A DNA stretch of 53,870 bases from a virus. This document shows positions 1,580-18,141 of the stretch, in pieces (the stretch's first letter is position 1; the number at the start of each line of letters is the position of its first letter). The stretch is from the IMG/VR virus record IMGVR_UViG_3300037842_000514, one strand, 5' to 3'. The translations under genes and the position numbers were made by a program. Below the pieces are notes generated by a model. It saw only the letters and a list, made by a program, of their open reading frames with translations, did not search any database and had not been told where the DNA came from.

Positions 1580-1616
1580 AGTAACCCCTTAACTTTATAT
1601 ATATATATATATCGAA

Positions 1617-2519: not shown

Positions 2520-3391
2520 TATCGTTTCCTATCACATAGTTCTGGTTTAGTTTTAAACTCACACCATTTGCAATTCTTTGCAGAAGGTTCTTTTCTGTAA
2601 GTTCCGGTTGTTTTATATTCACCATCAATAAAAGCGTCATCTAAAAAACTATTAAATTGAATCATAGTCTTGTTTATAGATGGAGTTCCATTAGCTGGGG
2701 CGAATATTTGTATTCTCTTTTGCGGAAAATCGACTTTTTCGTACAATTTACGTTTAACTATAAAGAATTCAACATCTATACTATTCAAAGGTACGTTGTA
2801 TTGTTTTGAATAAAATTGCTTATACAACAATAACTGATCGCTTTTTACTTTATCTTGCTTCATCCACTTATTCCACCCAACAGTAGATGTTTTTATATCT
2901 ATAATTTTGATACGATTTCTAAGAGTATCCTTTATAGCTATATCAATAAAACCTCTAAATGAGATGTGGTCTGATACTTGATGCTTCAACTCAATCTCAA
3001 CACCCAATAACTCATATCCTCTTTTAGAAAAATATTTATTCCTATTTTTTTTCAAGTAATCTAATATCGTAACTCCATCGTAGTAAAACTCTACCATTTC
3101 ATCTTGAGTACAAGGTTCTACCCCAGACGAGCTCTTTGTTATATCGATAAACTGCTCTTTCATACTAGCTAACAACATTGCGTTTAAGTCTAGGGCATCT
3201 GCATCTTTAGCAGTTTTAGTATACATTATAGTTAAATACTCTTGTATCACTTCATGAGCTGCACTTCCAAAAAGTGTAAATATATTCCCATGAAATTCTC
3301 GCATATCATCGACATAATTTAGTTTCCACTTCCAAGGGCACTGAACCCATTGTGAGAACTGAGAATAGCTTACAGACTTTATATCACTCAT
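2519..3391 (-). CDS. PD-(D/E)XK exonuclease, RecB/Cas4-like, with a probable Fe-S staple
   Basis: SYSQ..QCPWKW at the N-terminus; GFIDIA...IIDIKTS nuclease motif; QLLLY; C-terminal CKWCEF...C. Confidence 0.8.
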   Translation of the reverse strand: MSDIKSVSYSQFSQWVQCPWKWKLNYVDDMREFHGNIFTLFGSAAHEVIQEYLTIMYTKTAKDADALDLNAMLLASMKEQFIDITKSSSGVEPCTQDEMVEFYYDGVTILDYLKKNRNKYFSKRGYELLGVEIELKHQVSDHISFRGFIDIAIKDTLRNRIKIIDIKTSTVGWNKWMKQDKVKSDQLLLYKQFYSKQYNVPLNSIDVEFFIVKRKLYEKVDFPQKRIQIFAPANGTPSINKTMIQFNSFLDDAFIDGEYKTTGTYRKEPSAKNCKWCEFKTKPELCDRKR

Positions 3392-3801
3392 TTATGCCAT
3401 TTCCCATTCTTTACAATTTGTGCTATTATACCATATACAGCTAAATCTGCAAAAGCATCCATCACCGGTTCAGCTTCACCTTCAACATCTCGTTTGATTA
3501 TAAGATTGATTAATCTATTTACCTTATCATTAATACGTACGACTAATGCTGTGAGTGATAGTTTAACATCAGATGTATCCTTTAGATCAGTTCCCATACT
3601 AATGTTACCTGGGCCGTAATCGTGATGTTTTATCGCGAATAGGTTATATTGTTCTCGTTGAATTCTTCTGAACTCAGCCATCAATTCCGGATATTCTCGT
3701 TCTACCAACTGAATTACGTTATCACTGTCGTGGTTGATATCTGCTTCGAGGTCATCGTTCCCGTATAATATACGTTTACTACCTTCTTTCAAGTTAGTCA
3801 T
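3388..3801 (-). CDS. Nmad1/DUF1599 nucleotide-modification-associated alpha-helical protein
   Basis: LFAIKHHDYG..NI, VRINDKVNRL.NL and DAFADLAVYGII motifs. Confidence 0.7.
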   Translation of the reverse strand: MTNLKEGSKRILYGNDDLEADINHDSDNVIQLVEREYPELMAEFRRIQREQYNLFAIKHHDYGPGNISMGTDLKDTSDVKLSLTALVVRINDKVNRLINLIIKRDVEGEAEPVMDAFADLAVYGIIAQIVKNGKWHK

Positions 3802-4346
3802 TATATTATCCTATCAATTATACCATATTTCAACGATTCTTCTGCTGTTAAATATGTATCTTGTTTACTAACTTCATCCCAGAATGTATGTGATTTGGTT
3901 GTAACGTCACCTAATATTCGATTAATATTCGACTGAAGCTTTTTTAAGTGATCTGCACCCTTCAGCACATCTGACGTCTTCCCAGCTTCAAATGCTGAGC
4001 CTTCATGTATCATCACTGTAGAATTTTCAGTCATAGTTCTCTCACCAGTACCACATGCTAGTATAACTGCTGCAGCTGACATAGCTGTCCCCACAGCATG
4101 GGTATTCACTTTAACTGGTAATGACTTAAAGTAATCAATAGTCCCTAACATTGAATATACATCACCACCATATGATGATATGATAAGATTAAGATCTTCC
4201 CCTCCATTATACTGAGACATTGCATCAAATCTAGACATAATTGAATGTAACTGATCTGAATCAATATCGTATGTTAGATATACTGTATTGGATTTGAGGT
4301 TGATGCCCCATTCTATTTGTTTAAACAGATTGTCTATACTACTCAT
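3801..4346 (-). CDS. clpP: ClpP-family serine protease
   Basis: SSYGGDV, AMSAA (catalytic Ser), MIHE (His), DTYLTAEE.LKYGIID. Confidence 0.85.
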   Translation of the reverse strand: MSSIDNLFKQIEWGINLKSNTVYLTYDIDSDQLHSIMSRFDAMSQYNGGEDLNLIISSYGGDVYSMLGTIDYFKSLPVKVNTHAVGTAMSAAAVILACGTGERTMTENSTVMIHEGSAFEAGKTSDVLKGADHLKKLQSNINRILGDVTTKSHTFWDEVSKQDTYLTAEESLKYGIIDRII

Positions 4347-4355
4347 GTGTTCCCC

Positions 4356-4832
4356 CTATCTTAGATTTAGTTTTTTTAACTCTTTAGGATCAACGCCATA
4401 TTTTGCTAATAAATCGTGAAGTTCAACTTTACCACCTTCAGTCATTAAGAACACTTCTACGTATTCATATGATTGTTTGATACTAACTTCGTAATGTTTA
4501 GAGATTGCCTCTAAAACCCATTGTGGATATTTCATATTATCTTTTTCCTTTATGTATTTAATATATTGTTTACGTTTAGGTATCACGTCTATATATAATT
4601 TATATAATATTTTAGGATCTAGCGTGTACTTTTGAAATTCATTTACAATTACAACCCATTCAGGTTTCATTGATAAAAACCTATTAATCATATAATTAGA
4701 CCATGATTTCTTATCCTCTAATGATAAGGTGTCCCAGTAGTCATTCGTTTGAACCGCTGTTAGGTGGTTCAGGTGTTCGAATAACGTTTTTCTTTTTACT
4801 GAAGATTTCTTCCCAATTTTTTTCCCACTCAT
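4356..4832 (-). CDS. clamp loader small subunit (T4 gp62-like)
   Basis: LF.HLN.L...YMINRFLSM...YIKYIK pattern; lies next to the clamp and large clamp-loader genes. Confidence 0.65.
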   Translation of the reverse strand: MSGKKIGKKSSVKRKTLFEHLNHLTAVQTNDYWDTLSLEDKKSWSNYMINRFLSMKPEWVVIVNEFQKYTLDPKILYKLYIDVIPKRKQYIKYIKEKDNMKYPQWVLEAISKHYEVSIKQSYEYVEVFLMTEGGKVELHDLLAKYGVDPKELKKLNLR

Positions 4833-4885
4833 CCTGTGTTATACCTCTCCTGAGCTTATCACCCTTACCCGCTGTATTTGATTTA

Positions 4886-5143
4886 TTATTCGGCATTATC
4901 TGGAAATACTCCACTTCCCTTTAACAATTTCTCAGGTACAGCACCACAATTCCCACAGCTGTACACCTGAACCGGTATTAGCGATTCTTTCCCTGTAGGT
5001 GACATTATCGCAGAGATCTTCTTTATGATAAATGAGTGGATAAATAGATAATTTCCGCACTTATCACACGATTCTGTATCAGCTTTAGTTAAATCTAACT
5101 CCTGATGTGGTGGTTGAAATTGTTTTTGTGCTTTCATATTCAC
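4886..5143 (-). CDS. hypothetical zinc-ribbon protein
   Basis: CDKC and CGNC pairs. Confidence 0.6.
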   Translation of the reverse strand: MNMKAQKQFQPPHQELDLTKADTESCDKCGNYLFIHSFIIKKISAIMSPTGKESLIPVQVYSCGNCGAVPEKLLKGSGVFPDNAE

Positions 5144-6063
5144 GGTTTTATAACTCCTAGTATTTCTATCATCATAGCCATAGTGTTAATTTCTTTATCA
5201 ACGACCACGACATCAGATTGTTCATATTTTGCTATAATTAATATAACTTCAGCGATATACCCTTTACCATAAGTATCAACACTATCGTATAACAGTCGAA
5301 ATAAATCTGCAAAATCTGTTATCTTACTATCAGCTAATAATTGCCTTATCGTGGTAAATGCTGATTTCTTATCTTGAGTTTGAATCACTTCCAATATCTT
5401 CAACTTGTAGTCGTTTTCAACAACGCTATGTTTATCTATAGACAATAACCCATTAATAGATTGACGTTGTAGTGAATTGATAATCCGTCTTATATCAGGA
5501 TACCCTGAATTGATTATCAAAGCTACATCATCTATACTATAATTGATATTCTCACTATCTAATATATTTGTCGAATGTATAGCTACTTCCCTTTTCGATG
5601 GTGGAATTGTTTGAAATGATTGACATCTACTTTGAATGGGATCTATAATACGCTCGATATAATTACAAGTTAATATAAATCTTGTATGTTTACTGAAAGT
5701 CTCCATTAAATTTCTTAACGCCGCTAGTCCTTGTGGTGTTATAAAATCAGCTTCATCTAATATAACGACTTTTAAATCTTTAAACCCAACAGATGATGCA
5801 AAACTTTTTATTTTAGTTCGTACTACATCTACACTATTCTCATCACTAGCATTAATGTACAAATAGTCACATTCAATATTATTAACGATTAATTTAGCGA
5901 GAGTGGTCTTACCAGTTCCGGCCTTTCCGTATAATAACAAATGCGGTAAGTCACCACTCTCAAGGTAAGCAGATACTTTACTTTTGAGATGATTATTCCC
6001 AATGTAAGTATCCAGTGTATTTGGCCGATACTGTTCTACCCATAATGTATGTTCAGTAGCCAT
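5140..6063 (-). CDS. clamp loader large subunit (RFC/T4 gp44-like AAA+)
   Basis: LWVEQYRP, GKAGTGKT (Walker A), ILDEAD (Walker B), QSRC. Confidence 0.93.
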   Translation of the reverse strand: MATEHTLWVEQYRPNTLDTYIGNNHLKSKVSAYLESGDLPHLLLYGKAGTGKTTLAKLIVNNIECDYLYINASDENSVDVVRTKIKSFASSVGFKDLKVVILDEADFITPQGLAALRNLMETFSKHTRFILTCNYIERIIDPIQSRCQSFQTIPPSKREVAIHSTNILDSENINYSIDDVALIINSGYPDIRRIINSLQRQSINGLLSIDKHSVVENDYKLKILEVIQTQDKKSAFTTIRQLLADSKITDFADLFRLLYDSVDTYGKGYIAEVILIIAKYEQSDVVVVDKEINTMAMMIEILGVIKP

Positions 6064-6064
6064 A

Positions 6065-6781
6065 TTAAGAATGACCCTGCTGAGCTACTAAATAGTACTC
6101 TGATTTAAAATCTCCAAGTTGAAAACTAATATGTAATAATCCACTATTAGATATTTCCATAATCCCTCCAGTACACTCTTTGTTAGCTATTAATATTTCC
6201 TTAAACAATTCAGCGTTAAATGATATATACTCAGGCATGTGTAATTCATTTGTGGATAACGCCATAGTAACTCTATTAGTGTTTGTTGTAGAATATCCAA
6301 TAACAAACTTCAAACCACCCCTATCCATTACAGTAAAAGTTGACGCATCTGGTAATGCTGATTTACCTCGTATAAAAGTTGTAGTAAAGTTATTAGTAAT
6401 ATCAACTCTAGTTTCAAACTCAGGCATATTCTTGAGTTTGGGTGGAGTTGAAATTATAGATAAATCTGCTAATATAAAATTGCAAGTTGAATTGGTATCA
6501 GAAAATGTTAGTGAGATGGGTTTGCCATTTATATCTACCACATCAATTTCCATAGAATTGTCAACTGTATTCAACAACCGTTGTAATTGACTAGTCGAGT
6601 AGACTCCAATATCTGCGTTACAAAACTTAAAATTATCAACTGACACGTTTCCTAGTAAAGATTTACTATCAGTAATAAATGACGTCGATAAAGTGTCACC
6701 TTTACATACCCATTTAACGCTATCAACATTCCCACCTAAATTGTACTTTACGATGAATTGTTCTAATTTATTTTTATCCAC
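6065..6781 (-). CDS. DNA sliding clamp (T4 gp45-like)
   Basis: Clamp-like sequence ending SEYYLVA; next to RFC. The ORF track starts at 6835, but GTG 6781, overlapping the upstream stop, is the more likely start. Confidence 0.75.
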   Translation of the reverse strand: MDKNKLEQFIVKYNLGGNVDSVKWVCKGDTLSTSFITDSKSLLGNVSVDNFKFCNADIGVYSTSQLQRLLNTVDNSMEIDVVDINGKPISLTFSDTNSTCNFILADLSIISTPPKLKNMPEFETRVDITNNFTTTFIRGKSALPDASTFTVMDRGGLKFVIGYSTTNTNRVTMALSTNELHMPEYISFNAELFKEILIANKECTGGIMEISNSGLLHISFQLGDFKSEYYLVAQQGHS

Positions 6782-7196
6782 GTTCTCTAATCCTTTTATC
6801 TTTTGCCCACATTTGTATTCGTTTTTTATTATCATAGGCCGTTATATGTGGATATCTGTCTTTATTAAAAACAGCTTCTCCTTTTTCAGCATATTCTAAT
6901 ATAGACGTTTGTTCTAATTTTAAAACATCTGGATGTGACATCTCAGATGGTTTTACTATCCAACCAACTTCAACTTCTTGAGCTATCGGACCTCTTAAAA
7001 TTTGCCTCCACGATGTCATATTATAAGTAGCACCTCCTCTATTGTAATAAAAGTCTAAATCACCACGTCTATGTGTGTTATCTAACTGAGCTATCGTTTT
7101 TGATGACGATCCTATATACATAACATGACCGGAAATGGTATTTTTATAAGCATAAACTCCACGTTTTATATTATCGCTCATGCCACACCTCACCAT
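6774..7196 (-). CDS. GIY-YIG-like endonuclease
   Basis: GVYAYKN...MYIGSS bipartite motif, followed by Arg and LEQ..I...N. Confidence 0.55.
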   Translation of the reverse strand: MVRCGMSDNIKRGVYAYKNTISGHVMYIGSSSKTIAQLDNTHRRGDLDFYYNRGGATYNMTSWRQILRGPIAQEVEVGWIVKPSEMSHPDVLKLEQTSILEYAEKGEAVFNKDRYPHITAYDNKKRIQMWAKDKRIRERG

Positions 7197-7686
7197 CTTT
7201 CATGTTATAATCACCAGTGTAAATACCTTGTGAATCTGATTCAGCAATAATAAATTGAGCTACACAAGCATCAACTTCTAAATGAGCGGTTCCTATGTGA
7301 TTATATAACATACCGCAAACTGGACCTTCGAACCCTGAATCGTATATACCAGAATGGACAAATAATCCGTTCCGATTTAAAGTTGATCTAGTATGTAACC
7401 ATCCAACATGCCCTTCTGGAACTTTTACATATACATTACTCATAAAATCATATGACCCCGTTCCAATTTCCCAAAGGCTTGACCTACCTACATTATCATC
7501 TACCATTGTAGGTGTTAGCTCTACTCTCGATCTGTGAGTTTTTCCATCTACATTCAACACAAAAACGTCATCTTGAACTTCCCACATCCTTGTCATTGGA
7601 ATATCCACCGCGTTAGGTTGTATACATTTAGACGGTACGTATTGAAGCCAACCATTATCAATCGCTTTTTTTGGATTAATAAACAT
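7171..7686 (-). CDS. trimeric dUTPase/dCTP-deaminase-fold protein
   Basis: QPNAVD, RSTLNRNG, GIYDSGFEG, AQF and C-terminal YTGDY. Confidence 0.75.
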   Translation of the reverse strand: MFINPKKAIDNGWLQYVPSKCIQPNAVDIPMTRMWEVQDDVFVLNVDGKTHRSRVELTPTMVDDNVGRSSLWEIGTGSYDFMSNVYVKVPEGHVGWLHTRSTLNRNGLFVHSGIYDSGFEGPVCGMLYNHIGTAHLEVDACVAQFIIAESDSQGIYTGDYNMKDGEVWHER

Positions 7687-8597
7687 TATCTTAAACCTCC
7701 ATCTACACCTTTATATATAACTGATATCGCATCATGTTTATGTAACGATTCGTGATGTGCACATACTACTACAAAGTCCAAAACCCTCGAATCTCCATCT
7801 AAAGCTTCATATGCAATTCTCCCAGCATCTTCACAAAATAGTAAATTTGAACCATTCAATCTAGCAAACTCCGCTTCATCTTCTCTCTTACACATAACCA
7901 ATACCTCTGTTGGTATAGCTTTACGCATAGTGAGTATTAAATCCTCGATTAGATATGGATCGTCAGGATTCAATTGAATGGTAACTTTTGCAGTACTTCT
8001 CTGTGAATGTGATACTACAGGCTCTCCAGTCTGTTCGTGGACATATTGACCCATTTCATACGAACAAGGACATGCTGACGAATAAATGTATTCGACTGTT
8101 AGAAATAACTTGACGTCGTTATTATGATCCATCTTACCTTCTAATATACACGAGTAATATTGCCATCCTTCTAGCTTAGATCTCAACGACATCTGTTTCA
8201 TTGGATAGTCGAATCTAAACTTTATATACGAATCTCGAGATTCAAGTTTATCTTTATAATCATTCAACACATCATGTAACAACTCAATACTCAAATCTGT
8301 ACTAAGATGATCATAAAGAGTTCTAACCAACCGTGACATGTTAATTCCTTTAGTCTCTTTCGTTAACGACACATATGCTGATACTGTCGTTTTTAACTTT
8401 ATCGCTTTACCTTCTTTTGAAAAATACTTGACTGGTACTTCAACACCTTTTACTCCAACTTTCTGAATATTAGCCTCTGCCCCTCTAGTGGATAGATAAT
8501 TCTGAACATCAGGTAAGTTATCCCAATCAACGTTCTTTGGTAAATCTGATAGTTGTATAGCTGGTCCAGATGATGGACATTGTTTTTCATTACTCAT
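7686..8597 (-). CDS. folE2: GTP cyclohydrolase IB (FolE2)
   Basis: LPDVQ, IQKVG, KGINMSR, SACPCS, HSQRS, NLLFCED, HHESLHKHDA. Likely start is MSNEKQ at 8597. Confidence 0.92.
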   Translation of the reverse strand: MSNEKQCPSSGPAIQLSDLPKNVDWDNLPDVQNYLSTRGAEANIQKVGVKGVEVPVKYFSKEGKAIKLKTTVSAYVSLTKETKGINMSRLVRTLYDHLSTDLSIELLHDVLNDYKDKLESRDSYIKFRFDYPMKQMSLRSKLEGWQYYSCILEGKMDHNNDVKLFLTVEYIYSSACPCSYEMGQYVHEQTGEPVVSHSQRSTAKVTIQLNPDDPYLIEDLILTMRKAIPTEVLVMCKREDEAEFARLNGSNLLFCEDAGRIAYEALDGDSRVLDFVVVCAHHESLHKHDAISVIYKGVDGGLR

Positions 8598-9427
8598 TAT
8601 TTGTTCTCCAAATGTATAGTTTTCCACACTAAAAAGTTATGGTCGACTGTTTCTATTTCTTTTTGATTTAACTTTTTGTCAAAATTTAATTTTTCCATTA
8701 TTATTTCATCTACATATCCATCTTGGATGGAACTTCCATTATACCCATATACGAAAGGCATAGATGTGTCGTTTGATCTTATAAAATCCCAACCATTATC
8801 ATAATAATACATCAATTCATTTACACCTACATTATCAGATCCGAGTAAGTGTAATTCTTTATTAAAGATATCTGGTGTCATTTTAGCTGAAACTAAAGCA
8901 TTTAAACACTTGATACGACCACTACTACAATTTCCACTTTCGTGGTGGTTTCCTATAAAACTCTCTGGCACTGCAAGCTTAGAAAAACCTATAACATCTA
9001 CATCATCAATGCGAATCAACTCTTCATAACACTTCATCCATTCGTCTTCAGATCTACCTTGAGGTATTGCCATAAATTTTGTGTTTTCAAACCCCAACGG
9101 ATTTCGCCGTTTCCAAAACTTCAAGAAGTCTTTTACTGAATCGACAGTGTCACTACCATTAAACAATACATCTATTGCACACACTTCATCTGGATTGATT
9201 TTCATAGCTGCATCATATACTAAATCTAACGATACTCCATGACCTTGTTCTTCAAACTCAAAAGCTGAATTATCCATTATCACGTATTTATTAGACTGCT
9301 TTCCGTAGAACTCAGCATACTTATCATCTTCTAATACTTTATGTGCGAGACACAAATGCCTATCACTTAACGTCGCATGACTATTCAGATGTGGTGTACT
9401 TGTGATGTAACAAATATCAATTTTCAT
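8597..9427 (-). CDS. TIM-barrel TGT/DpdA-like protein, putative 7-deazaguanine transglycosylase or nucleotide synthase
   Basis: VIMDNSAFE (compare TGT DSGGF), MAIPQG, LHLLG and IRSNDTS match the positions of TGT catalytic motifs; located inside the folE2/queD/queE cluster. Confidence 0.6.
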   Translation of the reverse strand: MKIDICYITSTPHLNSHATLSDRHLCLAHKVLEDDKYAEFYGKQSNKYVIMDNSAFEFEEQGHGVSLDLVYDAAMKINPDEVCAIDVLFNGSDTVDSVKDFLKFWKRRNPLGFENTKFMAIPQGRSEDEWMKCYEELIRIDDVDVIGFSKLAVPESFIGNHHESGNCSSGRIKCLNALVSAKMTPDIFNKELHLLGSDNVGVNELMYYYDNGWDFIRSNDTSMPFVYGYNGSSIQDGYVDEIIMEKLNFDKKLNQKEIETVDHNFLVWKTIHLENK

Positions 9428-9806
9428 TTACTATACCTCCTTGTATATTATCTTCAAAAACAGAAACTTTCCAATTTCGTTTAACTTTTTTAAAAAACTT
9501 TTGTTTTCTATATTTTTTCTCCAACTGCTCGAGGATGACTTGTCCAATCATTTCACAACTCGAACTTCCAAACTTCTTTATATATTGGCCTGGATATGTA
9601 TTATCAATAATCTTCATCAACTCCAATCGTAACATTATGAATTCTATCTCTCTATCATCATGCGTTACATTACATTCCACATATATGTGAAAGTCGTGAT
9701 GATGTTCGTATTGTAAGAAACCCACTTCCGGAAAGAATTTATCTACATCAGGCCAATTGTGTGTCCCTAATACGATGTGCTTCACTTTAATTTGTGCACT
9801 ATTCAT
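9417..9806 (-). CDS. QueD-paralog T-fold protein, DpdL-like (putative CDG decarboxylase)
   Basis: FLQYEHHHDF resembles the LxxxHRHxF signature recalled for DpdL; also DREIEFI, SCEM and VSVFED; a canonical QueD is present separately. Confidence 0.6.
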   Translation of the reverse strand: MNSAQIKVKHIVLGTHNWPDVDKFFPEVGFLQYEHHHDFHIYVECNVTHDDREIEFIMLRLELMKIIDNTYPGQYIKKFGSSSCEMIGQVILEQLEKKYRKQKFFKKVKRNWKVSVFEDNIQGGIVNEN

Positions 9807-10377
9807 TTATAATATCCATTAAACTTTTAACATTCGACTGTAAATCTTTCAGCGTTCCTGAATTATCTAACACGTAATCTGCTTTTGTTGGTGAATTTGG
9901 ATCGTTCGATAGATGTTCAGTTATGTGGTTGATTTGATCTACATCTGTTAATGTTGATCGACCACTAATGTATATTATAAATCCACCATTTCGTTTAACG
10001 TAATCCCACTCATTCTGAAATCTAATGTCAGTTACTACTATTTTATCGTGATCATCTACCATCGATTTTACTGACAAATTTATCCAATAATCATCTCCAT
10101 GACGATTCCTCATATCCATTCCATATTCTTGTATAAAGCGTCTAATTGACAAATTGAACACCAAATGTCCGTCCATATAAGGATTGTGTTCGACTACATC
10201 TAAGTCTTTATTTTTATGTGATTCTAACGTTAATCTATCTATTTGTAAGTATCTACACAAATCATCCTTCATAACATCAGCTGATGCAGTTCTACGAAAT
10301 CCTTCAATTTTTAGTAAATCAGAAATGCTATCCTTTCCACAACCAGCTGGTCCTATTAAACCTAACAACGTTTTCAC
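9799..10377 (-). CDS. deoxynucleoside monophosphate kinase (T4 gp1/T5-like)
   Basis: GPAGCGKDS P-loop, RRFIQEYG, DYWI, VVTDIRFQNE. Confidence 0.85.
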   Translation of the reverse strand: MKTLLGLIGPAGCGKDSISDLLKIEGFRRTASADVMKDDLCRYLQIDRLTLESHKNKDLDVVEHNPYMDGHLVFNLSIRRFIQEYGMDMRNRHGDDYWINLSVKSMVDDHDKIVVTDIRFQNEWDYVKRNGGFIIYISGRSTLTDVDQINHITEHLSNDPNSPTKADYVLDNSGTLKDLQSNVKSLMDIINE

Positions 10378-11156
10378 TAAACTTCCCTATCAGTATCAAA
10401 TGCGATTATATGATCTCTACCAGTCATCCTATACCCATGTTCAGCGACCATATCGAACACCTTAGGATACATCTTGATTAATTCTTCTCTACAATCACCT
10501 GCAGGCATGATATAAGTTTTACTTTTTGGAATATTCATTCTCACTCTAAATGCCTCTATTTCTTTTAGGTTGACTATAGTACCATCCCATACTGGTTTGA
10601 AATGATAATCAGTGTGGTATTCTATTAATTCTTCAATTGCATTGTAATTTAACCTAAATCTATCATGTAAGTCAACAAATTTCTGATCGACTACTTTGCC
10701 TTTTGGTGTAATTGCTCCTATAACTGGAACTGAATTACTGAACTTAGGACTGAGACTAATAAGATCAATCGGTAAGTCAGTTATGATCGGATGAGATCCT
10801 TCAGTTTCCATTGTAACTATGATCCCACGTTCACTTGCAAAATACATTAGTTCGTTTACCAAATCAGAATGCATGCTTGGCGACCCACCAGTCAACATCA
10901 TTTCTTTTATGTGTGGATTTTCATCATAAATGTCAATTATATCTTGAAATGTATATTTCCCTTTCTCTGGATGTATAGAATTTTGCCAGCTATCACACCA
11001 CCCACCATCACCGAAGAAGCAGCGATGTGTACAGCCTAAACAACGTACTGCTATAGTAGGTATTCCAAATCTACTACCTTCCGACTGAACGCATCGATAT
11101 AGCTCATTAACTGGTAGCACTTTATCATAATTTGGTATTCTTCCTATTTTTTCCAT
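10377..11156 (-). CDS. queE: 7-carboxy-7-deazaguanine synthase (radical SAM)
   Basis: CVQSEG, GCTHRC-FFGDGGW-CD, LTGGSP, METEG, SLSPK. Confidence 0.88.
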   Translation of the reverse strand: MEKIGRIPNYDKVLPVNELYRCVQSEGSRFGIPTIAVRCLGCTHRCFFGDGGWCDSWQNSIHPEKGKYTFQDIIDIYDENPHIKEMMLTGGSPSMHSDLVNELMYFASERGIIVTMETEGSHPIITDLPIDLISLSPKFSNSVPVIGAITPKGKVVDQKFVDLHDRFRLNYNAIEELIEYHTDYHFKPVWDGTIVNLKEIEAFRVRMNIPKSKTYIMPAGDCREELIKMYPKVFDMVAEHGYRMTGRDHIIAFDTDREV

Positions 11157-11195
11157 TATATAACTCCTTGTTTTTTCAACATATTCACCTGCACG

Positions 11196-11726
11196 TTATA
11201 GTACATCCTCGAATAGATTTTCATTCCATTCTCTATGCCCTTCACGATAAGCCATGTTAGTTTGCGTTTCACGTACTTCTACTCTAAAACACCAAAGTCT
11301 TTCCGCCTCACCTGGCCCCCACATATCTGGAATAAATACTCCATTTACATATTTGTATAATTGATCAGCTATAGATTCACACCCTAAATTTGGTAATATA
11401 CAAAGTCTTGCCAAACCTCGCTTTTCTAATTCTTTATACAGATCCATTTCAGGTTCATCTTCAGCTACTAATAGTGTATGGTCGAATTGATCATCAAGGA
11501 GTTGTTTGAGTTCTCCAAGTCCACCATAATCAGCGGCCCAATTTCTAACATCCAAATCATTTGTACCGAAGTAGAATTTCATACTGAGACTATACCCATG
11601 AATAACATTACAATGACTATCTGCTCTCCATTGCCTATATGCTACTGGGAACTTATCTACGTATTCTTTCGTACTAACATATTTGTATGTTACTGGTGTT
11701 TTATTTTCAATTTGCATATTCTTCAT
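11196..11726 (-). CDS. queD: 6-carboxy-5,6,7,8-tetrahydropterin synthase
   Basis: HCNVIHGY, DYGGL, QFDHTLL, GCE, VEVRET. Confidence 0.88.
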   Translation of the reverse strand: MKNMQIENKTPVTYKYVSTKEYVDKFPVAYRQWRADSHCNVIHGYSLSMKFYFGTNDLDVRNWAADYGGLGELKQLLDDQFDHTLLVAEDEPEMDLYKELEKRGLARLCILPNLGCESIADQLYKYVNGVFIPDMWGPGEAERLWCFRVEVRETQTNMAYREGHREWNENLFEDVL

Positions 11727-11837
11727 TTTAACCTTTCATCTTAGTTCGTTTTTTAGTGTTACATTTAGGTTTTGGATTTATACCCACCACCCATCCTACA
11801 ATTTCTTCACACACTTTTAGTATATCTTTCATTATCA

Positions 11838-14351
11838 TTAGAAGAACCGCTCTAATGAAACTTTAGTATCAATTGGCTCAGTCCACGATAACGCTTCATA
11901 AATAATTTTTACTTTTTTATATAACGCGTTATCAAATATAGTATCATAATCAATATACGTTTTTATAAAATCTAAGATTTCGATCGGATCATCGTATCCT
12001 TTAAAAGCTATAGACTTGTAATTTAAACTATTAGGTTTAAGATATATCCACTTCACTTTTTCTCCACTATTAATCGGTGTATATTCATCGCTGACTTTTA
12101 AATATTTTAACAGATCGTTATATCTCACTGATGATTTTACATGAATCGGTGTTCCTTTATTAAATTCAGTTGCTATGCTATCACTTTTCCTTATAAATTT
12201 CTTTATATTTGATATGCCAGTTGGTGAAGCAATCTCATCTATAGGAAGAGTTTTCATGTGAGATTTAAAACTCATTATATCATTATCTATTTTGGATTTA
12301 TCCACATCTCCCAATATATCAACAAGCACTCCCATCATTAATTTTTGAAAAGATGGAGCAAACGAACTTTTAATAACATCCAAACCTTTAATATCTAACC
12401 TATCACACGCGATACCATTATCATTGATAATTTTTTGAGCATATCGTTTCTTAGTAACCCAAAAAGCTCGTTTAGCTATAACTTCTTGTTTAATATCAAA
12501 TTTATGTGGTCCTTTAATATTTAAAAATCTCTGTGCAAATAGATCATACGAATCATTTAAAAACTTTTGAACATATGATGTGATTCCTAACACTTGACTA
12601 GTCATAAACTGCTCATCTTCATAATCAGCTTTAGGGTATCTGTGCTTAATTATCGGAAGAGCACTTGCAAAAATAGAATCAGTATCTATATACACTACAT
12701 GGTCTTTATCTACATTCAATTCTTTATTATAAATATAATTTACCATCTTCTGTGAATATTTAATTAAATGCTGTCCTGTAAGTGTAATAGCTTCAGAATT
12801 ATCTGTATCGTAAAATCTGAATATCGGTAAACCGAATACTCCATATACTGTATTGAGAAGAATCTTCTGAATATATTGTCTACGATTAAAGTACTCTGAT
12901 TTTGATTGATCGCCAGCATCGTGATATTTTTTAGATAGCTTTCTATATTCTTTTCGTTCATTGAACCATTTTGAGAGAATTGCAGGTATTAATCCAGTTT
13001 TCTCTTGGTTATACATAACTCCAGTTACTGCAATGGATATTTTATTTATGTCTAATAGGGTTTTAACTTCACTTGTATTATACTGTCGTTTAATTTTCCC
13101 ATCGACTATAAAATCATATACTTTATCAGTCCCTTTAAGATATTCATCAATATCCCAACCGTCTAACTTTCCCAATTTCATCTCTGGTGATATATTCATT
13201 GACATTATAATTGACGGATACATTGACGTAATATCTAGATCATATATCCATTTATGTTTACCCGGAATTGGATCTTTTACGTAAGCTCCAACATATTTAA
13301 TGTTAGTAGGGACGTTTGATTTTGGTGCTTTGTTTGGTGCCACTACACCTATTCGTCTCATATACGTTAACATAGCACCTTCAATATATCGACTAGAATA
13401 TACTACATCTTCATATGATATATGACCGAGATGACTAACACCCATAGCTAATGTTATGAAGTCTAACTTCTCGTTCAATTTCACGATCAACTTAACATCT
13501 TGTAAGTTATATTCTATAAATTTATTAATCTCATTTAAATACAAATCAGTTAAGCTTCCATCATAAGACACCTTCTTCTGCCCAACCTCAAGTTCACCAA
13601 TATAGTCTAACCTATAAGATGGTTGTTGTTTAAATGTAAATTTTTTATATAACGTGAGATAATCTAAAACTGAAACACCAGCTATTTTAAATCGTTCTTG
13701 TCTATCGTTGAAATTTACTATACTAATTGGAGATAATGCGTTTGCAATTTCCGATCCCAACACCACCACCGTTCTATTATATAAATACGGTATATCAAAT
13801 CCATCAACATTCCACCCACTTAACACGGTTGGTGCGATTTCAATGTATTTTTGAAAAAACCGTTGCAATAACTCTCCCTCATCAGTAAATAGTTCAACTG
13901 ATACGTTATCTTTAGTGTAAGCAATAGCTTCTGAAGATTGAGTGCAGGTGTATACAAAATAATCATCAGTGGTCTTATCATATAAAGCTATAGATGTTAT
14001 TGGTTGATCTGCAAGTCTCCAATCTGGAAACCCTGCTGATGATTCAGTTTCAATATCAAAGTATAATTCTCTATGCCCTGTAGCAATATCATCAGAATCG
14101 CCGTATTTATCGATTAAGATTCTCGTTTCAATTGGTACGTCACTTTCAAATATCTTGTTTTTTTCGACATCATCATGTGTCCAAAACTGAACTCTCTTTA
14201 AATTATCACCATATAATGATTTATAAGTACCTGCTCCATACTTTTTATAAGCATAACTCTTAACATTAAATTTAGTATATCCAGTCTTATCATCCCAGAG
14301 ATGTACTTCATTGAATTTTTTATGCCGTCTACAGTATATATTCTGATACAA
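11838..14351 (-). CDS. family B DNA polymerase (T4 gp43-like), TTG start
   Basis: ExoI FDIET, ExoII GWNVDGFDIPY, motif A DITSMYPSII, motif B KILLNTVYG, motif C YIDTDS. Confidence 0.96.
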   Translation of the reverse strand: MYQNIYCRRHKKFNEVHLWDDKTGYTKFNVKSYAYKKYGAGTYKSLYGDNLKRVQFWTHDDVEKNKIFESDVPIETRILIDKYGDSDDIATGHRELYFDIETESSAGFPDWRLADQPITSIALYDKTTDDYFVYTCTQSSEAIAYTKDNVSVELFTDEGELLQRFFQKYIEIAPTVLSGWNVDGFDIPYLYNRTVVVLGSEIANALSPISIVNFNDRQERFKIAGVSVLDYLTLYKKFTFKQQPSYRLDYIGELEVGQKKVSYDGSLTDLYLNEINKFIEYNLQDVKLIVKLNEKLDFITLAMGVSHLGHISYEDVVYSSRYIEGAMLTYMRRIGVVAPNKAPKSNVPTNIKYVGAYVKDPIPGKHKWIYDLDITSMYPSIIMSMNISPEMKLGKLDGWDIDEYLKGTDKVYDFIVDGKIKRQYNTSEVKTLLDINKISIAVTGVMYNQEKTGLIPAILSKWFNERKEYRKLSKKYHDAGDQSKSEYFNRRQYIQKILLNTVYGVFGLPIFRFYDTDNSEAITLTGQHLIKYSQKMVNYIYNKELNVDKDHVVYIDTDSIFASALPIIKHRYPKADYEDEQFMTSQVLGITSYVQKFLNDSYDLFAQRFLNIKGPHKFDIKQEVIAKRAFWVTKKRYAQKIINDNGIACDRLDIKGLDVIKSSFAPSFQKLMMGVLVDILGDVDKSKIDNDIMSFKSHMKTLPIDEIASPTGISNIKKFIRKSDSIATEFNKGTPIHVKSSVRYNDLLKYLKVSDEYTPINSGEKVKWIYLKPNSLNYKSIAFKGYDDPIEILDFIKTYIDYDTIFDNALYKKVKIIYEALSWTEPIDTKVSLERFF

Positions 14352-14416: not shown

Positions 14417-15347
14417 TTAATTAGCGTAATCTTGATCATCGTTATCCCCAGCGATTGGTATTATCTCACAAGTGTCGTTATTACAAAACTTGTCGGGTTC
14501 AGCTTCTTCACCTTCAATACCGGCGAAGCTTAACTTTCCTAATTTCGAAAGCATTTTATTGTATTTTTTTTCATCAATTTCCTCATATGGCATTTGTCTA
14601 TAAGCCCCATACTCATGTCTCGGTAATAATGATATCCCTTTTAACTTGTATTGAAAATATTCAAGTACATGTGGTAGTTGTGTAGATTCAACTGCAGGAT
14701 TAAATGTTGCTGTACAACTTACTTGATTGTCTGCCCAATGTCTCTGTAAGAATGCTGCTAGGCTGAATTGTTCCCATATAGATAGTTCTCCTACAGTTCG
14801 AATTCCTTCACCAATATCAATTGGAACCTCAACAACTACTGTCGAATCTTCACTACCAAATGCTGGTTCTAAATTGTAGTTTGCTTTCTTTAACGACTCT
14901 ATCAATTCTGATTGTTTAGATAATCTCATTCGTCGTATATAAAATCTACTTTCCGGATAGTGCATTCCTGGAGTAGCTCCTACTAATAAACTAACAGTTC
15001 CAGAAGGTTTAATGCTACTCAACTTTATACTTCTTGGTACAGCTAACCAATCTGAGTACATCTTATCCCATTTCGTTAGCTCATTATACCCTTCTTCACA
15101 CCACGTTTTTAAAGAATCCAATCCCCTATTAGTAACAAATTGTGCTATACCACTCATCGATGTACCAATTCTTCTATTTCTCAGCATAACTCGATTGGTG
15201 TCAGGCCAGTGTGTTTTTCCTAATGTAACTGTTTTTGCATATAAGTATGCATACTTTAATGTCTTCTTATAATCTTCTAAGTCGTCGTGGTGGTGTGGGA
15301 AAGTTTCCACAAGACAACATAATTCATAAGATTCTAAACTTTGTTCG
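14417..15347 (-). CDS. nrdJ: class II ribonucleotide reductase, 3' exon (C-terminal part)
   Basis: Frame reads EQSLESYELCCLVETFP...RNRRIGTS...IKPSGTVSLL...C-terminal FCNNDTC; joins to 15523-15635 after intron removal. Confidence 0.9.
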
Positions 15348-15522
15348 CTTTTTACGGATTGTATCAGTAAACTTTCAATCTATAAGGTGGACTGTCGCAT
15401 CTTCATTAGAAGTTTCTCCGCTCAGTCTCTCACGCTGGCTTTACCCTTGCGCCCTGTCGGCGTTTCACTCGCCTTCCAAGTCAATCAGGAGAAATTTATA
15501 CTACCCCGGGACTTGTTAGTTA
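15348..15522 (-). mobile_element. 175-nt group I intron without an ORF
   Basis: The 5' exon ends in U (ACTGCCT) and pairs with IGS GGGTAGT (15500-15506) with a U.G wobble. P3 TTTCTCC/GGAGAAA; P7 GAGACTG/ACAGTC; P8 CTTC-TAAT-GAAG; terminal G. Removal restores the frame TGC CTC GAA CAA (C-L-E-Q). Confidence 0.85.
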
Positions 15523-15635
15523 AGGCAGTTGTGGATTAATATATTATTAGCCACAAAATTGTGATTATTTTCTACACTCAAATCGTATACGTCTTGATTT
15601 TTATCATGTAATATTGTTTTAAGCAATCTTCCCAT
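15523..15635 (-). CDS. split intein C-fragment (36 aa) plus the first extein codons of NrdJ
   Basis: MGRLLKTILHDKNQDVYDLSVENNHNFVANNILIHN/C with blocks F and G; GGAG RBS upstream; too short for the ORF track. Confidence 0.88.
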
Positions 15636-16668
15636 AAGATTTAATCTCCGTTAAATAATTGTTAATTGAACTAAAGTATTTTTCGATACTTTTTTTAGTA
15701 ATCCCAAAGGTTTTTGGAACAGCTTCAGTTTTATTTTTTCTCTCTATTATGATATTATTAATATCAGTAATCTCTTTTATGTTGTATAATTCAAGTAAAA
15801 CCCCATACTTTAACATTTTAGTTTTATATGAATTAATTGAACTATTTTTTGGTAATGGTTTTCGTGGTTTACCAATCAAATTATTGTATCTATTAGTGCA
15901 TCCATTCTTTTTACACGTTTTTCTATCGATATCGCTTACAATCCTGTATTCGAATACATCTCCACAAATAATACAATTAGATACTTTTATTGGATCAGTT
16001 ATATCCTTTCCTTCCCAAAATAATTTACTCTCTTCCTTGCGTTGTGCTGATATTATCTCCCGCCTTTTCATACCATCTGGTGTATTATAAAAAGCACGTA
16101 TAGATTTGCTAAGTCTATCAGTATATTTTTTATCAGATGCCCGTTCGGCTGTTTTTTTTCCAATTTTAAGTTTAGTTTCATCTGAAGATGTCGTGCCGTA
16201 TCTTGGATTGTTTTTACCTCTCATATCCACAGTTTTATGGTTTTTAATAGAAGCTTCAATCCATTCTTTAACACCATTTTCAAGTTTATATTTTTTAACT
16301 ATTTTGCTAATGTGTTTATCCCACACTACCAAATACCGTATTCCGATATTTCCAAACAATTTATTGTATTTATAATAATAATCCATAGCTTCTTTTTTAG
16401 AGCTTTTGACTTCTATAATTGTTCTAATTTTATCATTAACAATATGAAAAAAATCAGGCTTGTAACTTTTACCATCAAATTCGTATATTTTACTTTCATA
16501 TAAAAATGACATATTAGCTATATCCAACCATTTAGCAATAACAAATTCACATTTACTGCGTAAATAATATTTTTTATTATCTTTTGTTGTATAATACCCG
16601 ACATAACTTCTATGATTAGTATCACCTCTCTTAATTTTCCCATGTTTTTGTTCACAATATGTTTTCAT
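15619..16668 (-). mobile_element. free-standing homing endonuclease (TnsA-like PD-(D/E)XK with NUMOD3 and Zn-finger) between the intein halves
   Basis: LRSKCE...YE...YKPDF...IIEVKS; GKNNPRYG..SDETKLKIG; CIICG...C...C. Confidence 0.75.
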
Positions 16669-16701
16669 AATTCATCTCTTTTTAGTGGTTGTTTATCTAA
16701 T

Positions 16702-16710
16702 AATAAATAT
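16702..16710 (-). promoter_or_regulatory. putative late-promoter motif ATATTTATT before the endonuclease gene
   Basis: Same motif recurs 15-45 nt before starts at 22138, 37008, 40611 and 48317. Confidence 0.45.
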
Positions 16711-16746
16711 AATAGAATTAAAAAATAAACACTAAAATTAAAAGAA

Positions 16747-18141
16747 TTATGTTATTATTTTAATATTATCATCTTCAGTTAAATCTTTAGCTTCTACATA
16801 CCCCTTATTGGTTGTATAGACTTTATGGTCAGGGGTACAAGTAAGTTTATAGATATTTCCATCTTCTTCAATCTCTAACGTCATGATAGAAACATCCTTT
16901 CTGCTTAACCAAGCGTTAGTAATAACATTGTATTCTAATGATAGAGTATTTTCATTAAAAGTTAATGCTTTAATTTCTTCACCGTTTTTTACCAGTTCTA
17001 CAACTTCTTCAACGGTTAATTTACCTTTATCAGTATTAACTAATGTATCACCAACTACACATGGATTTCCACCAGCTACCCTATGGTCTTTATTATCACC
17101 ACCATTTTTCATACGAGAATACTTTCTCATATTATCTAACCACGCAATTCCAGGTTCACCATTATCTACTATTCGTTTACATATATCAGTATAATCCATT
17201 CCTAATTCAGCGAATACTGAGTTATTGGAAGTCCATCCGTAATCTTCCCTATGAGGGTTTTTCTTGTAATTCTTTAGATCTAAATATTCTTCTGAGTGTG
17301 GATCTCCAAATACAATCTCAGCTGTGCGCCTTACATTACCGGCCACTACACACTTACCAATCAAATTCATGATGTCCACAATTGTAGTTACTGTAATTGG
17401 TTGTCCTATATTGATGTCTAATATTTTTTTAATTTTATTATTAATTTCCTCTAATGGATCAGGACCACTACTAATTCCCCCAAATCCTTTAATGGGTTCT
17501 CCCAACCCTCTGATTAACGAGTAATCAAATTCTACATCTACAGTTCCTACGAAGTAGCTATCCAACACCATCTTTACAGATTCTACCCAACCTTCTCGTG
17601 TATCTGGAATCCGAAATACATTGGATGTTTGTGATAAGTTTAATTTGGGACCTTTAATAACAATCTCACCAGCACCTTTTGTATCGAAACCGACACCCAC
17701 TCCTAACATAGAAGCGTCCATTAGGAATGTGAATGGTTTAGATAAATCTTCCTTAATAGTCTTAGTTGAAACGAACGCACAATTGTTAAGTGCTGCGTAT
17801 AATTTCTTTTCTTCTGTTATAGCAGTTCCCATTGCCCATAACCCACGACCGGGTGGAAGGAATTTCATACTCCACATTCTCTCGTACATTTCTTGAGCTG
17901 AGTTTTGAGCTTGCCATGGATTCCAACCTAATTGGTGCTGTTCAATCCACTGCTTTTGCATATTGTAAGTACCTTCTACAACTCGTCTAATAGTTTCCCA
18001 CCATCTCTCATTTTTACCATTATCTTTGATACGGGAATATGTTCTCATATAAACTAACTCACCAAGACCATTGAAACCGAATGGTGGTTTTTTTCTTTTA
18101 TATTTATTTATAAATGATTCCGTTAAAACAAACTTATCCAT
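16747..18141 (-). CDS. nrdJ: class II (AdoCbl) ribonucleotide reductase N-terminal part fused to a split intein N-fragment (104 aa, 16750-17061)
   Basis: RTYSR, FLPPGRGLW, LNNCAF, GNVRRTAEI, GGNP|CVVGDT (block A), TCTPDHKVYT (block B), then a stop. Confidence 0.92.
   Translation of the reverse strand: MDKFVLTESFINKYKRKKPPFGFNGLGELVYMRTYSRIKDNGKNERWWETIRRVVEGTYNMQKQWIEQHQLGWNPWQAQNSAQEMYERMWSMKFLPPGRGLWAMGTAITEEKKLYAALNNCAFVSTKTIKEDLSKPFTFLMDASMLGVGVGFDTKGAGEIVIKGPKLNLSQTSNVFRIPDTREGWVESVKMVLDSYFVGTVDVEFDYSLIRGLGEPIKGFGGISSGPDPLEEINNKIKKILDINIGQPITVTTIVDIMNLIGKCVVAGNVRRTAEIVFGDPHSEEYLDLKNYKKNPHREDYGWTSNNSVFAELGMDYTDICKRIVDNGEPGIAWLDNMRKYSRMKNGGDNKDHRVAGGNPCVVGDTLVNTDKGKLTVEEVVELVKNGEEIKALTFNENTLSLEYNVITNAWLSRKDVSIMTLEIEEDGNIYKLTCTPDHKVYTTNKGYVEAKDLTEDDNIKIIT

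Follow-up and report, generated by a model that had tools for sequence, protein, structure and literature searches.

A QueC-less 7-deazaguanine operon with an embedded nucleotide kinase suggests, without proving, guanine replacement at the nucleotide level in a viral genome

The window analysed here, a 53,870-nt stretch of viral DNA (IMG/VR record IMGVR_UViG_3300037842_000514), carries a 7-deazaguanine operon at 7171-14351, with all ORFs on the minus strand. The gene set for substituting 7-deazaguanine for all guanine is already known, and this operon is a distant relative of the system found in the Cellulophaga phage phiST. The kinase and the dNTP-cleaving enzyme within it suggest, without proving it, that the base is swapped on free nucleotides before the DNA is copied, a reading to which we assign a probability of about one half. 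From upstream to downstream the genes are:

polB, 11838..14351, minus strand: T4-type family B DNA polymerase, 837 aa, TTG start, upstream of the operon
queD, 11196..11726, minus strand: 6-carboxy-tetrahydropterin synthase
queE, 10377..11156, minus strand: 7-carboxy-7-deazaguanine synthase, radical SAM
dNMP kinase, 9799..10377, minus strand: T4 gp1-type deoxynucleoside monophosphate kinase, 192 aa, GTG start
DpdL-like, 9417..9806, minus strand: T-fold protein, proposed CDG decarboxylase, 129 aa
DpdA3-like, 8597..9427, minus strand: TGT-fold guanine transglycosylase, 276 aa
folE2, 7686..8627, minus strand: GTP cyclohydrolase IB, start probably the in-frame ATG at 8597
DCD/dUTPase-fold, 7171..7686, minus strand: probable dNTP pyrophosphatase
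140-aa ORF, 6774..7196, minus strand: overlaps the operon end, operon membership doubtful

ORFs and family matches bear out this order from polB to the dUTPase-fold gene, as proposed in the first-pass annotation, and measurement of the junctions confirmed the overlapping starts and stops in the part that begins with queE. Gaps of 111 nt and 39 nt separate polB from queD and queD from queE, and successive genes, starting with queE and the kinase, overlap by 1, 8, 11, 31 and 1 nt; the fourth overlap would be a single nucleotide were folE2 translated from the in-frame ATG at its codon 10. Independent contigs from marine metagenomes (L002, L009 and L013-L015) show the identical gene order, with protein identities of 55-78%, so the arrangement is not due to chance. 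Its surroundings in the window form a T4-like replication and nucleotide module which includes RNR and thymidylate synthase.

Homology indicates that FolE2, QueD and QueE would together convert GTP to 7-carboxy-7-deazaguanine (CDG). FolE2 covers the whole of PF02649 (4.8e-69) and is in the equivalent position in L009, L011 and L013, whilst QueD (PF01242, 1e-12; phrog_2389, 4.7e-33) retains the motif C-x3-H-G-Y, the catalytic Cys and His of C-x3-H-G-[HY] being invariant in the alignment. QueE matches phrog_2076 (8e-42) and, at the cut-off, PF04055, and is 60% identical to QueE of phiST and of immuto. Among isolated phages, its subtype was found only in Cellulophaga, Flavobacterium and Campylobacter phages (tblastn, E<=1e-10), and these lineages are those reported as complete G replacers. 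The absence of queC held within the 53.9-kb window, where no ORF of at least 80 aa matched QueC in Pfam or PHROGs and the six-frame translation contained no SGGxDS PP-loop motif; queC could lie elsewhere in the genome, beyond the window. With no QueC, the pathway would therefore end at CDG, and preQ0 and queuosine could not be made. This absence had also been taken as a sign of pre-replicative insertion, but it tells us which base is made (DG via DpdL, not preQ0) rather than when it is inserted.

The DpdL-like protein, a putative decarboxylase, is proposed to convert CDG to 7-deazaguanine (DG). It has no Pfam match but is 37% identical to phiST DpdL (E 2e-13), and its invariant motif, L-x3-H-x-H-x-F, has Leu where QueD has Cys. 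The top folds for its AF2 model (pLDDT 88.4) are PTPS/QueD (E 7e-6, TM 0.68), and hhalign pairs it with QueD at a probability of 47% (E 2e-4). DNA of phiST contains 302,000 dDG per 10^6 nt and zero dG (PMC10516641), and Vibrio phage VP1 is a second phage that is fully dDG (bioRxiv 2025.10.29.685425). By analogy with phiST, essentially all dG in the virion DNA is expected to be dDG (2'-deoxy-7-deazaguanosine). Of the two products initially entertained, CDG or decarboxylated 7-deazaguanine, the latter is thus retained, and dCDG is unlikely because DpdL is present. The claim of wholesale G replacement is also supported, as the cluster is of the QueC-less type giving complete replacement, as in phiST.

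The phiST system consists of FolE, QueD, QueE, DpdL and DpdA3, with no QueC (Cui, Hutinet et al., NAR 2023, PMC10516641). QueD and QueE (33-60% identity), DpdL and DpdA3 are homologous between the two, both lack QueC, and in both the cluster adjoins a replicative polymerase and encloses a P-loop kinase and an NTP pyrophosphatase. They differ in gene order and in several of the parts: the window has FolE2 (type IB) where phiST has FolE, PolB in place of Pol III alpha, a T4-gp1-type DNMK in place of an AAA_18 kinase and a DCD-fold enzyme in place of MazG, the last two pairs having no detectable homology. In addition, dDG is the measured product in phiST and the predicted one in the window.

Homology to DpdA3 indicates that the TGT-fold enzyme exchanges G for DG, be it on a nucleotide or on DNA. 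It is 27% identical to phiST DpdA3 (E 5e-27) and matches phrog_20335 (5e-23), with no match to any Pfam family, TGT included. The AF2 model (pLDDT 90.8) scores higher against ArcTGT (Z 18.2), DpdA 7UI4 (16.9) and bacterial TGT (16.4) than against generic barrels (<=14.3), and each of the best 50 Foldseek matches is a TGT. It comprises the TGT TIM-barrel core alone, without the zinc motif. D52, D86, Q123, G147 and D220 are conserved family-wide; the conserved Asp residues fall where catalytic ones are expected, an equivalence that derives from fold and motif order rather than residue-level superposition. The window protein is acidic (pI 4.9, charge -17), although the wider family is not uniformly so (median pI 6.1, up to 9.8). 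Bacterial DpdA/DpdB and phage DpdA1/DpdA2, which give dPreQ0, dADG or dG+, share the barrel and the two Asp residues; compared with the 413 aa of DpdA (PDB 7UI4), the window enzyme is shorter, acidic, zinc-free and outside the Pfam TGT family. Those enzymes modify at most 30% of G, and do so on DNA.

The embedded kinase matches PF21448 (55 bits, cut-off 27.1), phrog_139 (3.9e-40) and the T4 gp1 structure (PDB 1DEK, E 5e-4), has the P-loop G-x4-G-K-D, and is kept in the equivalent position in L002, L009 and L011-L015. More broadly, of the 12 lineages sampled, 11 have a P-loop nucleotide kinase no further than about 4 kb from the DpdA3-like gene. Five mutually unrelated families are represented among these kinases: DNMK (window clade, L011, Vibrio D479, Aeromonas Ahp1), AAA_18 (phiST, MA9V-3), AAA_28 (immuto, L024, with a homologue also in Campylobacter phage F379), Tmk-like (L016, Youna2/BSP7) and AAA_33 (the P0028 locus). 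In one sampled lineage, L023, none was seen in the 7 kb examined. DpdA3 accompanies the kinase more constantly than any other gene does; in P0174 the two are fused, between MazG and QueD and adjoining DpdL and Pol A, and Aeromonas phage Ahp1 has a divergent dNMP kinase beside DpdA3 as well as a canonical gp1-type kinase elsewhere (E 3e-50).

The DCD/dUTPase-fold protein matches PF22769 (38.4 bits, cut-off 27, E 1.7e-9) and PF00692 (29 bits). It retains the motif III Asp, lacks dUTPase motif V and has Met in place of the deaminase Glu, the position at which seven other cluster-linked copies carry M, I, C, S or T. It is probably a dNTP pyrophosphatase, perhaps no more than a dUTPase. In 8 of the 12 lineages the cluster includes an NTP-pyrophosphatase-type gene, which is either DCD-like or a MazG, and the MazG proteins showed no specific link to MazZ. 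That the kinase and the dUTPase-fold gene belong to the module is borne out by the way in which they travel with DpdA3/DpdL across lineages through non-homologous displacement.

PolB (PF00136, 1.3e-32; PF03104, 3.7e-23; phrog_262, 4e-182) is 55% identical to the L002 PolB in the equivalent position. Its adjacency, offered as a pre-replicative sign, proved not to be specific: relatives' clusters carry Pol III alpha or Pol A instead, and partial-modification DpdA likewise adjoins the polymerase of its own phage. While the polymerase varies, the module retains its kinase and NTPase; two partial-modification DpdA clusters, in SeppeHuegi and phiSM, lack both a Walker-A ORF and any homologue of the module's kinases or NTPases within 6 kb.

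On the reading that we favour, the DCD-like pyrophosphatase would cleave dGTP to dGMP, emptying the dGTP pool and supplying substrate, and DpdA3 would then swap the base to give dDGMP. The embedded kinase would convert this to dDGDP and host NDP kinase to dDGTP, which the neighbouring replicative polymerase would incorporate. The proposed logic (canonical dNTP to dNMP, conversion, rephosphorylation by a phage kinase, exclusion of the canonical dNTP) resembles that of T4 hmC (gp56 dCTPase, gp42, gp1 dNMP kinase), of whose gp1 the window kinase is a homologue, and of the S-2L Z-genome (MazZ, PurZ, DatZ; PMC8342488). Unlike in those systems, the putative converter is a TGT-fold base exchanger rather than a hydroxymethylase or PurA homologue; PurZ and DatZ homologues are absent, and all steps in the window are proposed.

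The sole published view on timing is post-replicative and rests merely on the presence of DpdA homologues. DpdA3 would act on polymeric phage DNA, replacing G with DG as replication proceeds or once it is over, whilst the kinase and DCD-like enzyme would serve ordinary nucleotide metabolism (dNMP phosphorylation, dUTP exclusion, dUMP for thymidylate synthase) and merely share an early/replication operon. We consider this possible though doubtful. To our knowledge, all characterised TGT-fold transglycosylases act on polymers (tRNA or DNA, and protein for Cap10) and none on a free nucleotide; the fold and Asp pair match such enzymes, and bacterial DpdA and phage DpdA1/2 work on DNA (PMC10164549; PMC10516641). 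The polymerases beside partial-modification DpdA and the T4-like setting also fit, and T4-like phages commonly carry dNMP kinases and dUTPase-like enzymes for housekeeping. However, RNR and thymidylate synthase sit outside the translationally coupled operon, and this model leaves unexplained the repeated recruitment of non-homologous kinases, the P0174 fusion, the Ahp1 paralogue, the two DpdA1/2-type clusters lacking kinase and NTPase, and the failure of DpdA3 and DpdL alone to yield dDG in E. coli (PMC10516641). These points, the NTPase recurrence, the retention of both genes across polymerase changes, the zinc-free, acidic barrel core and the ADG nucleoside that cells infected with CP220 reportedly contain in their cytoplasm (PMC10516641) partly support exchange on nucleotides; L023 and the dispersed genes of F379 count against it. 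The pre-replicative claim has partial support from its kinase and NTPase evidence, with the base-exchange enzyme still central.

It is unlikely that DpdA3 is dispensable for making a DG nucleotide (a phosphoribosyltransferase acting on DG base, then the kinase and the phage class II RNR, being one such route), or that the kinase acts on a nucleoside, with DpdA3 only correcting residual G in DNA. The class II RNR directly upstream of the window's polB would suit such a scheme, as would immuto, whose cluster combines a PRTase-domain gene (PF00156, 1e-8) with a kinase and MazG. No PRTase was detected in the window or its close relatives, however, and the constancy of DpdA3 as a kinase partner, with a fusion in one lineage, speaks against such a route. 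Immuto resembles the window in DpdA3 (26% identity), QueE and the embedded kinase, and replaces G completely, but it has QueC, QueF, DpdN and Pol A, lacks DpdL and makes formyl-preQ1. We think it very improbable that the operon serves tRNA modification or provides the host with precursors of queuosine or folate, leaving the DNA unmodified: FolE2, QueD and QueE do double as tRNA-queuosine genes, but QueC is missing, DpdL and DpdA3 homologues occur in phages shown to carry dDG, and the operon is tightly coupled to replication genes.

The Campylobacter Firehammervirus phages (CP220, F379) share the QueE subtype (30% identity). In these, the P-loop homologue of the immuto cluster kinase adjoins a dUTPase and G is fully replaced (PMC10516641); unlike the window, they have dispersed genes, a QueC-like gene and dADG as the product. 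At the downstream end of the window operon, the 140-aa ORF has no Pfam or PHROG match; in the stretch separating the DCD-like gene from the clamp, L013 has no ORF and L009 has one of 167 aa.

The window is a phage fragment in which all genes lie on the minus strand (G+C ~33%), and it combines a T4-like replication module with myovirus-type structural genes. Its replication side carries a class II RNR that an intein and homing endonuclease interrupt, along with genes for a DnaB-type helicase, a FEN, a RecA/UvsX in split form, gp32, the sliding clamp and its gp44/62-type loader; thymidylate synthase, baseplate genes, a tape measure, portal and large terminase are also present. The deazaguanine cluster sits between polB and the clamp.

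11838-14351, minus strand: polB (family match)
11196-11726, minus strand: queD (PF01242, 1e-12; Cys/His motif)
10377-11156, minus strand: queE (phrog_2076, 8e-42; 60% identity to phiST QueE)
9799-10377, minus strand: T4-gp1-type dNMP kinase, DNMK (PF21448, 55 bits against a cut-off of 27.1; 1DEK, E 5e-4)
9417-9806, minus strand: DpdL-like protein, 129 aa (no Pfam match; 37% identical to phiST gp040, E 2e-13)
8597-9427, minus strand: DpdA3-like protein, 276 aa (no Pfam match; 27% identical to phiST gp042, E 5e-27)
7686-8627, minus strand: folE2 (PF02649, 4.8e-69)
7171-7686, minus strand: DCD/dUTPase-fold ORF (family match)

Each of the gene assignments made in the first-pass annotation is borne out, as is its description of genes that overlap from queE onward (by 1, 8, 11, 31 and 1 nt); if the ATG at codon 10 is taken as the folE2 start, the 31-nt overlap shrinks to 1 nt.

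The published system closest in content is that of the Cellulophaga phage phiST, which comprises FolE, QueD, QueE, DpdL and DpdA3 without QueC, and the window cluster is a distant member of this family, carrying every feature of it that can be looked for in sequence (FolE/QueD/QueE, DpdL and DpdA3). It differs from phiST in having FolE2, a gp1-type kinase, a DCD-fold NTPase and PolB. LC-MS of phiST DNA gave 302,000 2'-deoxy-7-deazaguanosine (dDG) per 10^6 nt and zero dG (PMC10516641), and Vibrio phage VP1 has since been reported as a second phage with complete dDG (bioRxiv 2025.10.29.685425). Given the phiST-type membership and the phiST LC-MS data, we expect dDG, at or near full substitution, in the DNA of the window phage. 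The nucleoside of 7-carboxy-7-deazaguanine (CDG), which had also been considered as a product, is less likely as DpdL is present. The reported lack of QueC stands for the window: none occurs among window ORFs of at least 80 aa, its PP-loop motif is found in 0/6 frames of the 53.9-kb window, and the complete genomes of phiST, Chryseobacterium phage MA9V-3 and Aeromonas phage Ahp1 contain none.

The operon, with its order kept, recurs in marine metagenome contigs L002, L009 and L013-L015 at 55-78% identity. A single-protein scan of IMG/VR returned one locus. A more distant, 45%-identical clade (L011/L012) keeps queD, queE, DNMK, dpdL, dpdA3, folE2 and the DCD-like gene, with Pol III alpha replacing PolB. 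In this clade a six-gene sugar-nucleotide cassette (2969-8549; a GT2, three epimerase/dehydratases, a DegT aminotransferase and a formyltransferase) separates queE from the dNMP kinase gene within the deazaguanine operon, and a PC4-like ssDNA-binding gene directly precedes dpdA3. In two of the close relatives (L013 2356-5088, L014 646-3378) RNR and PolB lie on either side of an unusual auxiliary gene, for a 910-aa SusC/TonB-dependent-receptor-like protein (CarboxypepD_reg + Plug), that is absent from the window and points to a Bacteroidota host. A scan of the window for sigma-70 promoters and terminators gave uninformative counts, at shuffle level, the host being probably Bacteroidota. The T4-like Vibrio phage D479 and Ahp1 have FolE, DpdL-like, DpdA3-like, DNMK and DCD-like genes together; a protein search with the window QueE as query found no QueE in either genome, and these phages may possess a very divergent QueE or take CDG from the host.

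The 129-aa protein bears the DpdL signature, a Leu in place of the catalytic Cys of QueD. The L-x3-H-x-H-x-F motif is invariant in nine sequences, L-x3-H-[RH]-H-x-F replacing C-x3-H-G-H, and the window clade has His at the R/H position. An AF2 model (pLDDT 88.4) has the PTPS/QueD T-fold (E 7e-6), and phiST gp040 is the protein called DpdL in PMC10516641.

The 276-aa protein aligns to phiST gp042 over 91% coverage and falls in the same PHROG. It lacks any Pfam match at E<=0.01, the TGT family PF01702 included, and its AF2 model (pLDDT 90.8) matches archaeosine TGT (1IQ8, Z 18.2), the DNA preQ0 insertase DpdA (7UI4, Z 16.9) and bacterial TGT (3UNT, Z 16.4), with unrelated TIM barrels at Z <=14.3; the top Foldseek matches are all TGT (E ~1e-8). 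Since PDB searches with two profiles of the family (A1 and A2) gave no sequence link to TGT or DpdA, this kinship is visible by fold comparison only. The window protein consists of the barrel core only, and the Cys motif of the zinc site (C-x-C-x2-C ... H) is absent from its sequence. Across 46 diverse family representatives D52 and D220 are (nearly) invariant, and at the ends of strands the family conserves two Asp, one Gln and one Gly in the order of the D-D-Q-G-D of TGT, a comparison of fold and motif order rather than a residue-level superposition. T94, R171, H193 and N264 are further conserved positions. On this basis the conserved residues may well correspond to the catalytic residues of DpdA, which in the Salmonella enzyme include the Asp residues D95 and D256 as general acid/base and nucleophile (PMC10164549). 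We also considered protein charge as a guide to whether DNA or a nucleotide is the substrate; the DpdA3 proteins of the window and isolates are acidic, but the family is not uniformly so (median pI 6.1, up to 9.8), making this a weak discriminator that holds only within the window's subfamily. Inteins or LAGLIDADG endonucleases interrupt several metagenomic DpdA3-like genes (P0104, P0159, P0132 and P0130), a pattern typically seen in highly conserved enzymes of replication and nucleotide metabolism.

The window kinase has the P-loop G-x4-G-K-D. The product of 7171-7686 keeps the motif III Asp and an aromatic residue and has a C-terminus of Dcd type. The deaminase catalytic Glu after motif III is replaced by Met, and by M/I/C/S/T in 7 other cluster-linked copies, and the window protein lacks dUTPase motif V (R-G-x2-G-F-G-S-[ST]-G), which the true dUTPase of Campylobacter phage F379 has. 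All eight cluster-linked DCD-like proteins (8/8) share this combination of no deaminase Glu, no motif V and a retained motif III Asp, and we therefore rejected dCTP deaminase as their function; judged by these motifs they are most simply putative dNTP pyrophosphatases. From a family with roughly 3,600 representatives we sampled 12 lineages of DpdA3-like genes for kinase and NTPase neighbours.

Kinase and NTPase neighbours of DpdA3-like genes in the 12 lineages surveyed
Window clade: kinase DNMK; NTPase DCD-like
L011/L012: kinase DNMK; NTPase DCD-like
phiST: kinase AAA_18; NTPase MazG
Chryseobacterium phage MA9V-3: kinase AAA_18; NTPase DCD-like
Flavobacterium phage immuto: kinase AAA_28; NTPase MazG/PRA-PH
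Vibrio phage D479: kinase DNMK; NTPase DCD-like
Aeromonas phage Ahp1: kinase DNMK; NTPase DCD-like
L016: Tmk-like kinase, fused to DpdA3; NTPase MazG
Youna2/BSP7: Tmk-like P-loop ORF overlapping DpdA3; NTPase not identified
P0028 locus: AAA_33 kinase at a distance of 3.5 kb, beyond an IS605 insertion; NTPase not identified
L024: AAA_28 kinase, overlapping; contig only 1.7 kb
L023: no kinase in the 7 kb available; no NTPase seen

Eleven of the 12 lineages pair DpdA3 with a kinase and eight of them with an NTP-pyrophosphatase-type gene, and the unrelated families to which these kinases and NTPases belong indicate non-homologous displacement. In lineage L016 an exhaustive profile search found a kinase-DpdA3 fusion (P0174; kinase in residues 1-190, DpdA3-like part in 196-393), whose gene sits between MazG and QueD and adjoins a canonical-motif DpdL and Pol A; a word-index search for longer fused forms of DpdA3 found none, leaving this as the sole fusion. 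The straboviral phage Ahp1 has a canonical gp1 homologue elsewhere (E 3e-50) as well as a divergent DNMK beside DpdA3, which argues for a dedicated kinase. Within 6 kb, both partial-modification control clusters, those of Escherichia phage SeppeHuegi and Cellulophaga phage phiSM, lack a Walker-A ORF as well as homologues of all the survey kinases and NTPases. The phiST kinase had been dismissed by the authors of that study because BLAST gave no homologues in other phages (PMC10516641). As for the cluster-linked MazG proteins, a test for resemblance to the (d)GTP-specific MazZ of S-2L was negative: their matches were confined to all-alpha NTP-PPases of generic type (RS21-C6, for example), or there were none.

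We consider it about an even chance (probability roughly 0.5) that the gene identities, folds, conserved residues and linkage observed here reflect base exchange at the level of free nucleotides. GTP would be converted to CDG by FolE2, QueD and QueE; from DpdL onward we infer the substrates, as we do the level at which DpdA3 acts. DpdL would decarboxylate CDG to 7-deazaguanine, the DCD-like enzyme would hydrolyse dGTP to dGMP, DpdA3 would swap the base on dGMP to give dDGMP, DNMK would phosphorylate this to dDGDP, and host NDK would supply dDGTP for incorporation by PolB. The bolder proposition, which we hold tentatively and at slightly less than even odds, is that DpdA3 is a free-deoxynucleotide transglycosylase (dGMP + 7-deazaguanine -> dDGMP + guanine) rather than a DNA-modifying enzyme, and that, working alongside a dGTP pyrophosphatase and a dNMP kinase that are both dedicated to the task, it provides the third natural way, after those for hmC/hmU and the Z-base, of reaching a fully substituted genome pre-replicatively. 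Our literature search found neither a demonstration nor a detailed proposal of a 7-deazaguanine route at nucleotide level.

The first-pass annotation had already favoured a pre-replicative route, and its reasons fare unequally. The embedded kinase and dUTPase-fold gene make a much stronger argument across the 12 lineages than one window shows. The missing QueC is a weak argument, as QueC decides which base is made and not when it is inserted, and so is PolB adjacency, since partial-modification phages also have DpdA beside polymerases. Several points count against exchange on nucleotides: no TGT-fold enzyme is known to act on mononucleotides, housekeeping roles can explain both accessory genes, L023 has no visible kinase, and the genes are dispersed in Campylobacter phages. 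Post-replicative exchange of G on DNA is a less likely competitor. The published claim for it was based on DpdA homologues being present, and the same authors could not obtain dDG from DpdL and DpdA3 in E. coli (PMC10516641). A mixed or PRTase-RNR route seems improbable, and a tRNA or metabolic role for the cluster highly improbable.

The literature ascribes both the complete replacement of G in some phages and the <=30% reached in others to post-replicative DpdA enzymes. Together the window, its relatives and the fusion define a minimal clonable set (FolE2, QueD, QueE, DpdL, DpdA3, dNMP kinase and DCD-like NTPase) that makes the basis of full replacement directly testable. Were DpdA3 to act on free nucleotides, the post-replicative model would be wrong for all full-G-replacement phages (phiST, immuto, Firehammervirus and VP1), and the TGT fold would gain a new substrate class. 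Exchange at nucleotide level would also represent a new in vivo way to a non-canonical dNTP and would give enzymatic access to 7-deaza-dGTP analogues, compounds already employed in sequencing and PCR. Should the nucleotide route not hold, the window is simply one more marine phage of the phiST-type dDG family, probably infecting Bacteroidota.

Elsewhere in the window, the class II (B12-dependent) RNR at 14417-18141 (minus strand) is split into an N-terminal part that ends in an intein splicing domain (16747-18141), a NUMOD3-containing ORF (15619-16668) and a C-terminal barrel piece (14417-15310); in relatives L011 and L013 the gene is uninterrupted and encodes 666-671 aa. The RecA/UvsX-like recombinase at 20755-23514 (minus strand) is likewise split: its N-terminal part (22732-23514) and the RecA C-terminal piece (20755-21237) flank the C-terminal splicing domain of an intein (22371-22751) and an ORF for a Vsr/HNH-type endonuclease (21224-22201). 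Further homing endonucleases, GIY-YIG among them, occur at 46161-46952 and 42484-43275, and with the split genes they indicate a genome heavily invaded by selfish elements. A ClpP-family protease gene (3801-4346, minus strand; PF00574, 1.2e-32) lies inside the replication module between the clamp-loader small subunit and a nuclease. The genes at 50843-53212 (minus strand) encode a 567-aa protein whose N-terminal domain is cytidylyltransferase-like (phrog_3041/395) and, after it, a 174-aa P-loop protein resembling polynucleotide kinase (phrog_415). A conserved block downstream of the clamp loader (window 3-2021, minus strand; L009 12775-17421; L013 15433-20822), which might have a bearing on the DNA modification through glycosylation or guanine-nucleotide turnover, for instance, consists of a PD-(D/E)XK nuclease, 2-3 glycosyltransferases, one of the 'GT4 in conflict systems' type being cut by the window end (3-1370), and a SLOG-family protein (DprA/YAcAr/cpYpsA-like, 1617-2021), the SLOG/LOG fold being linked to nucleotide N-glycosidase chemistry.
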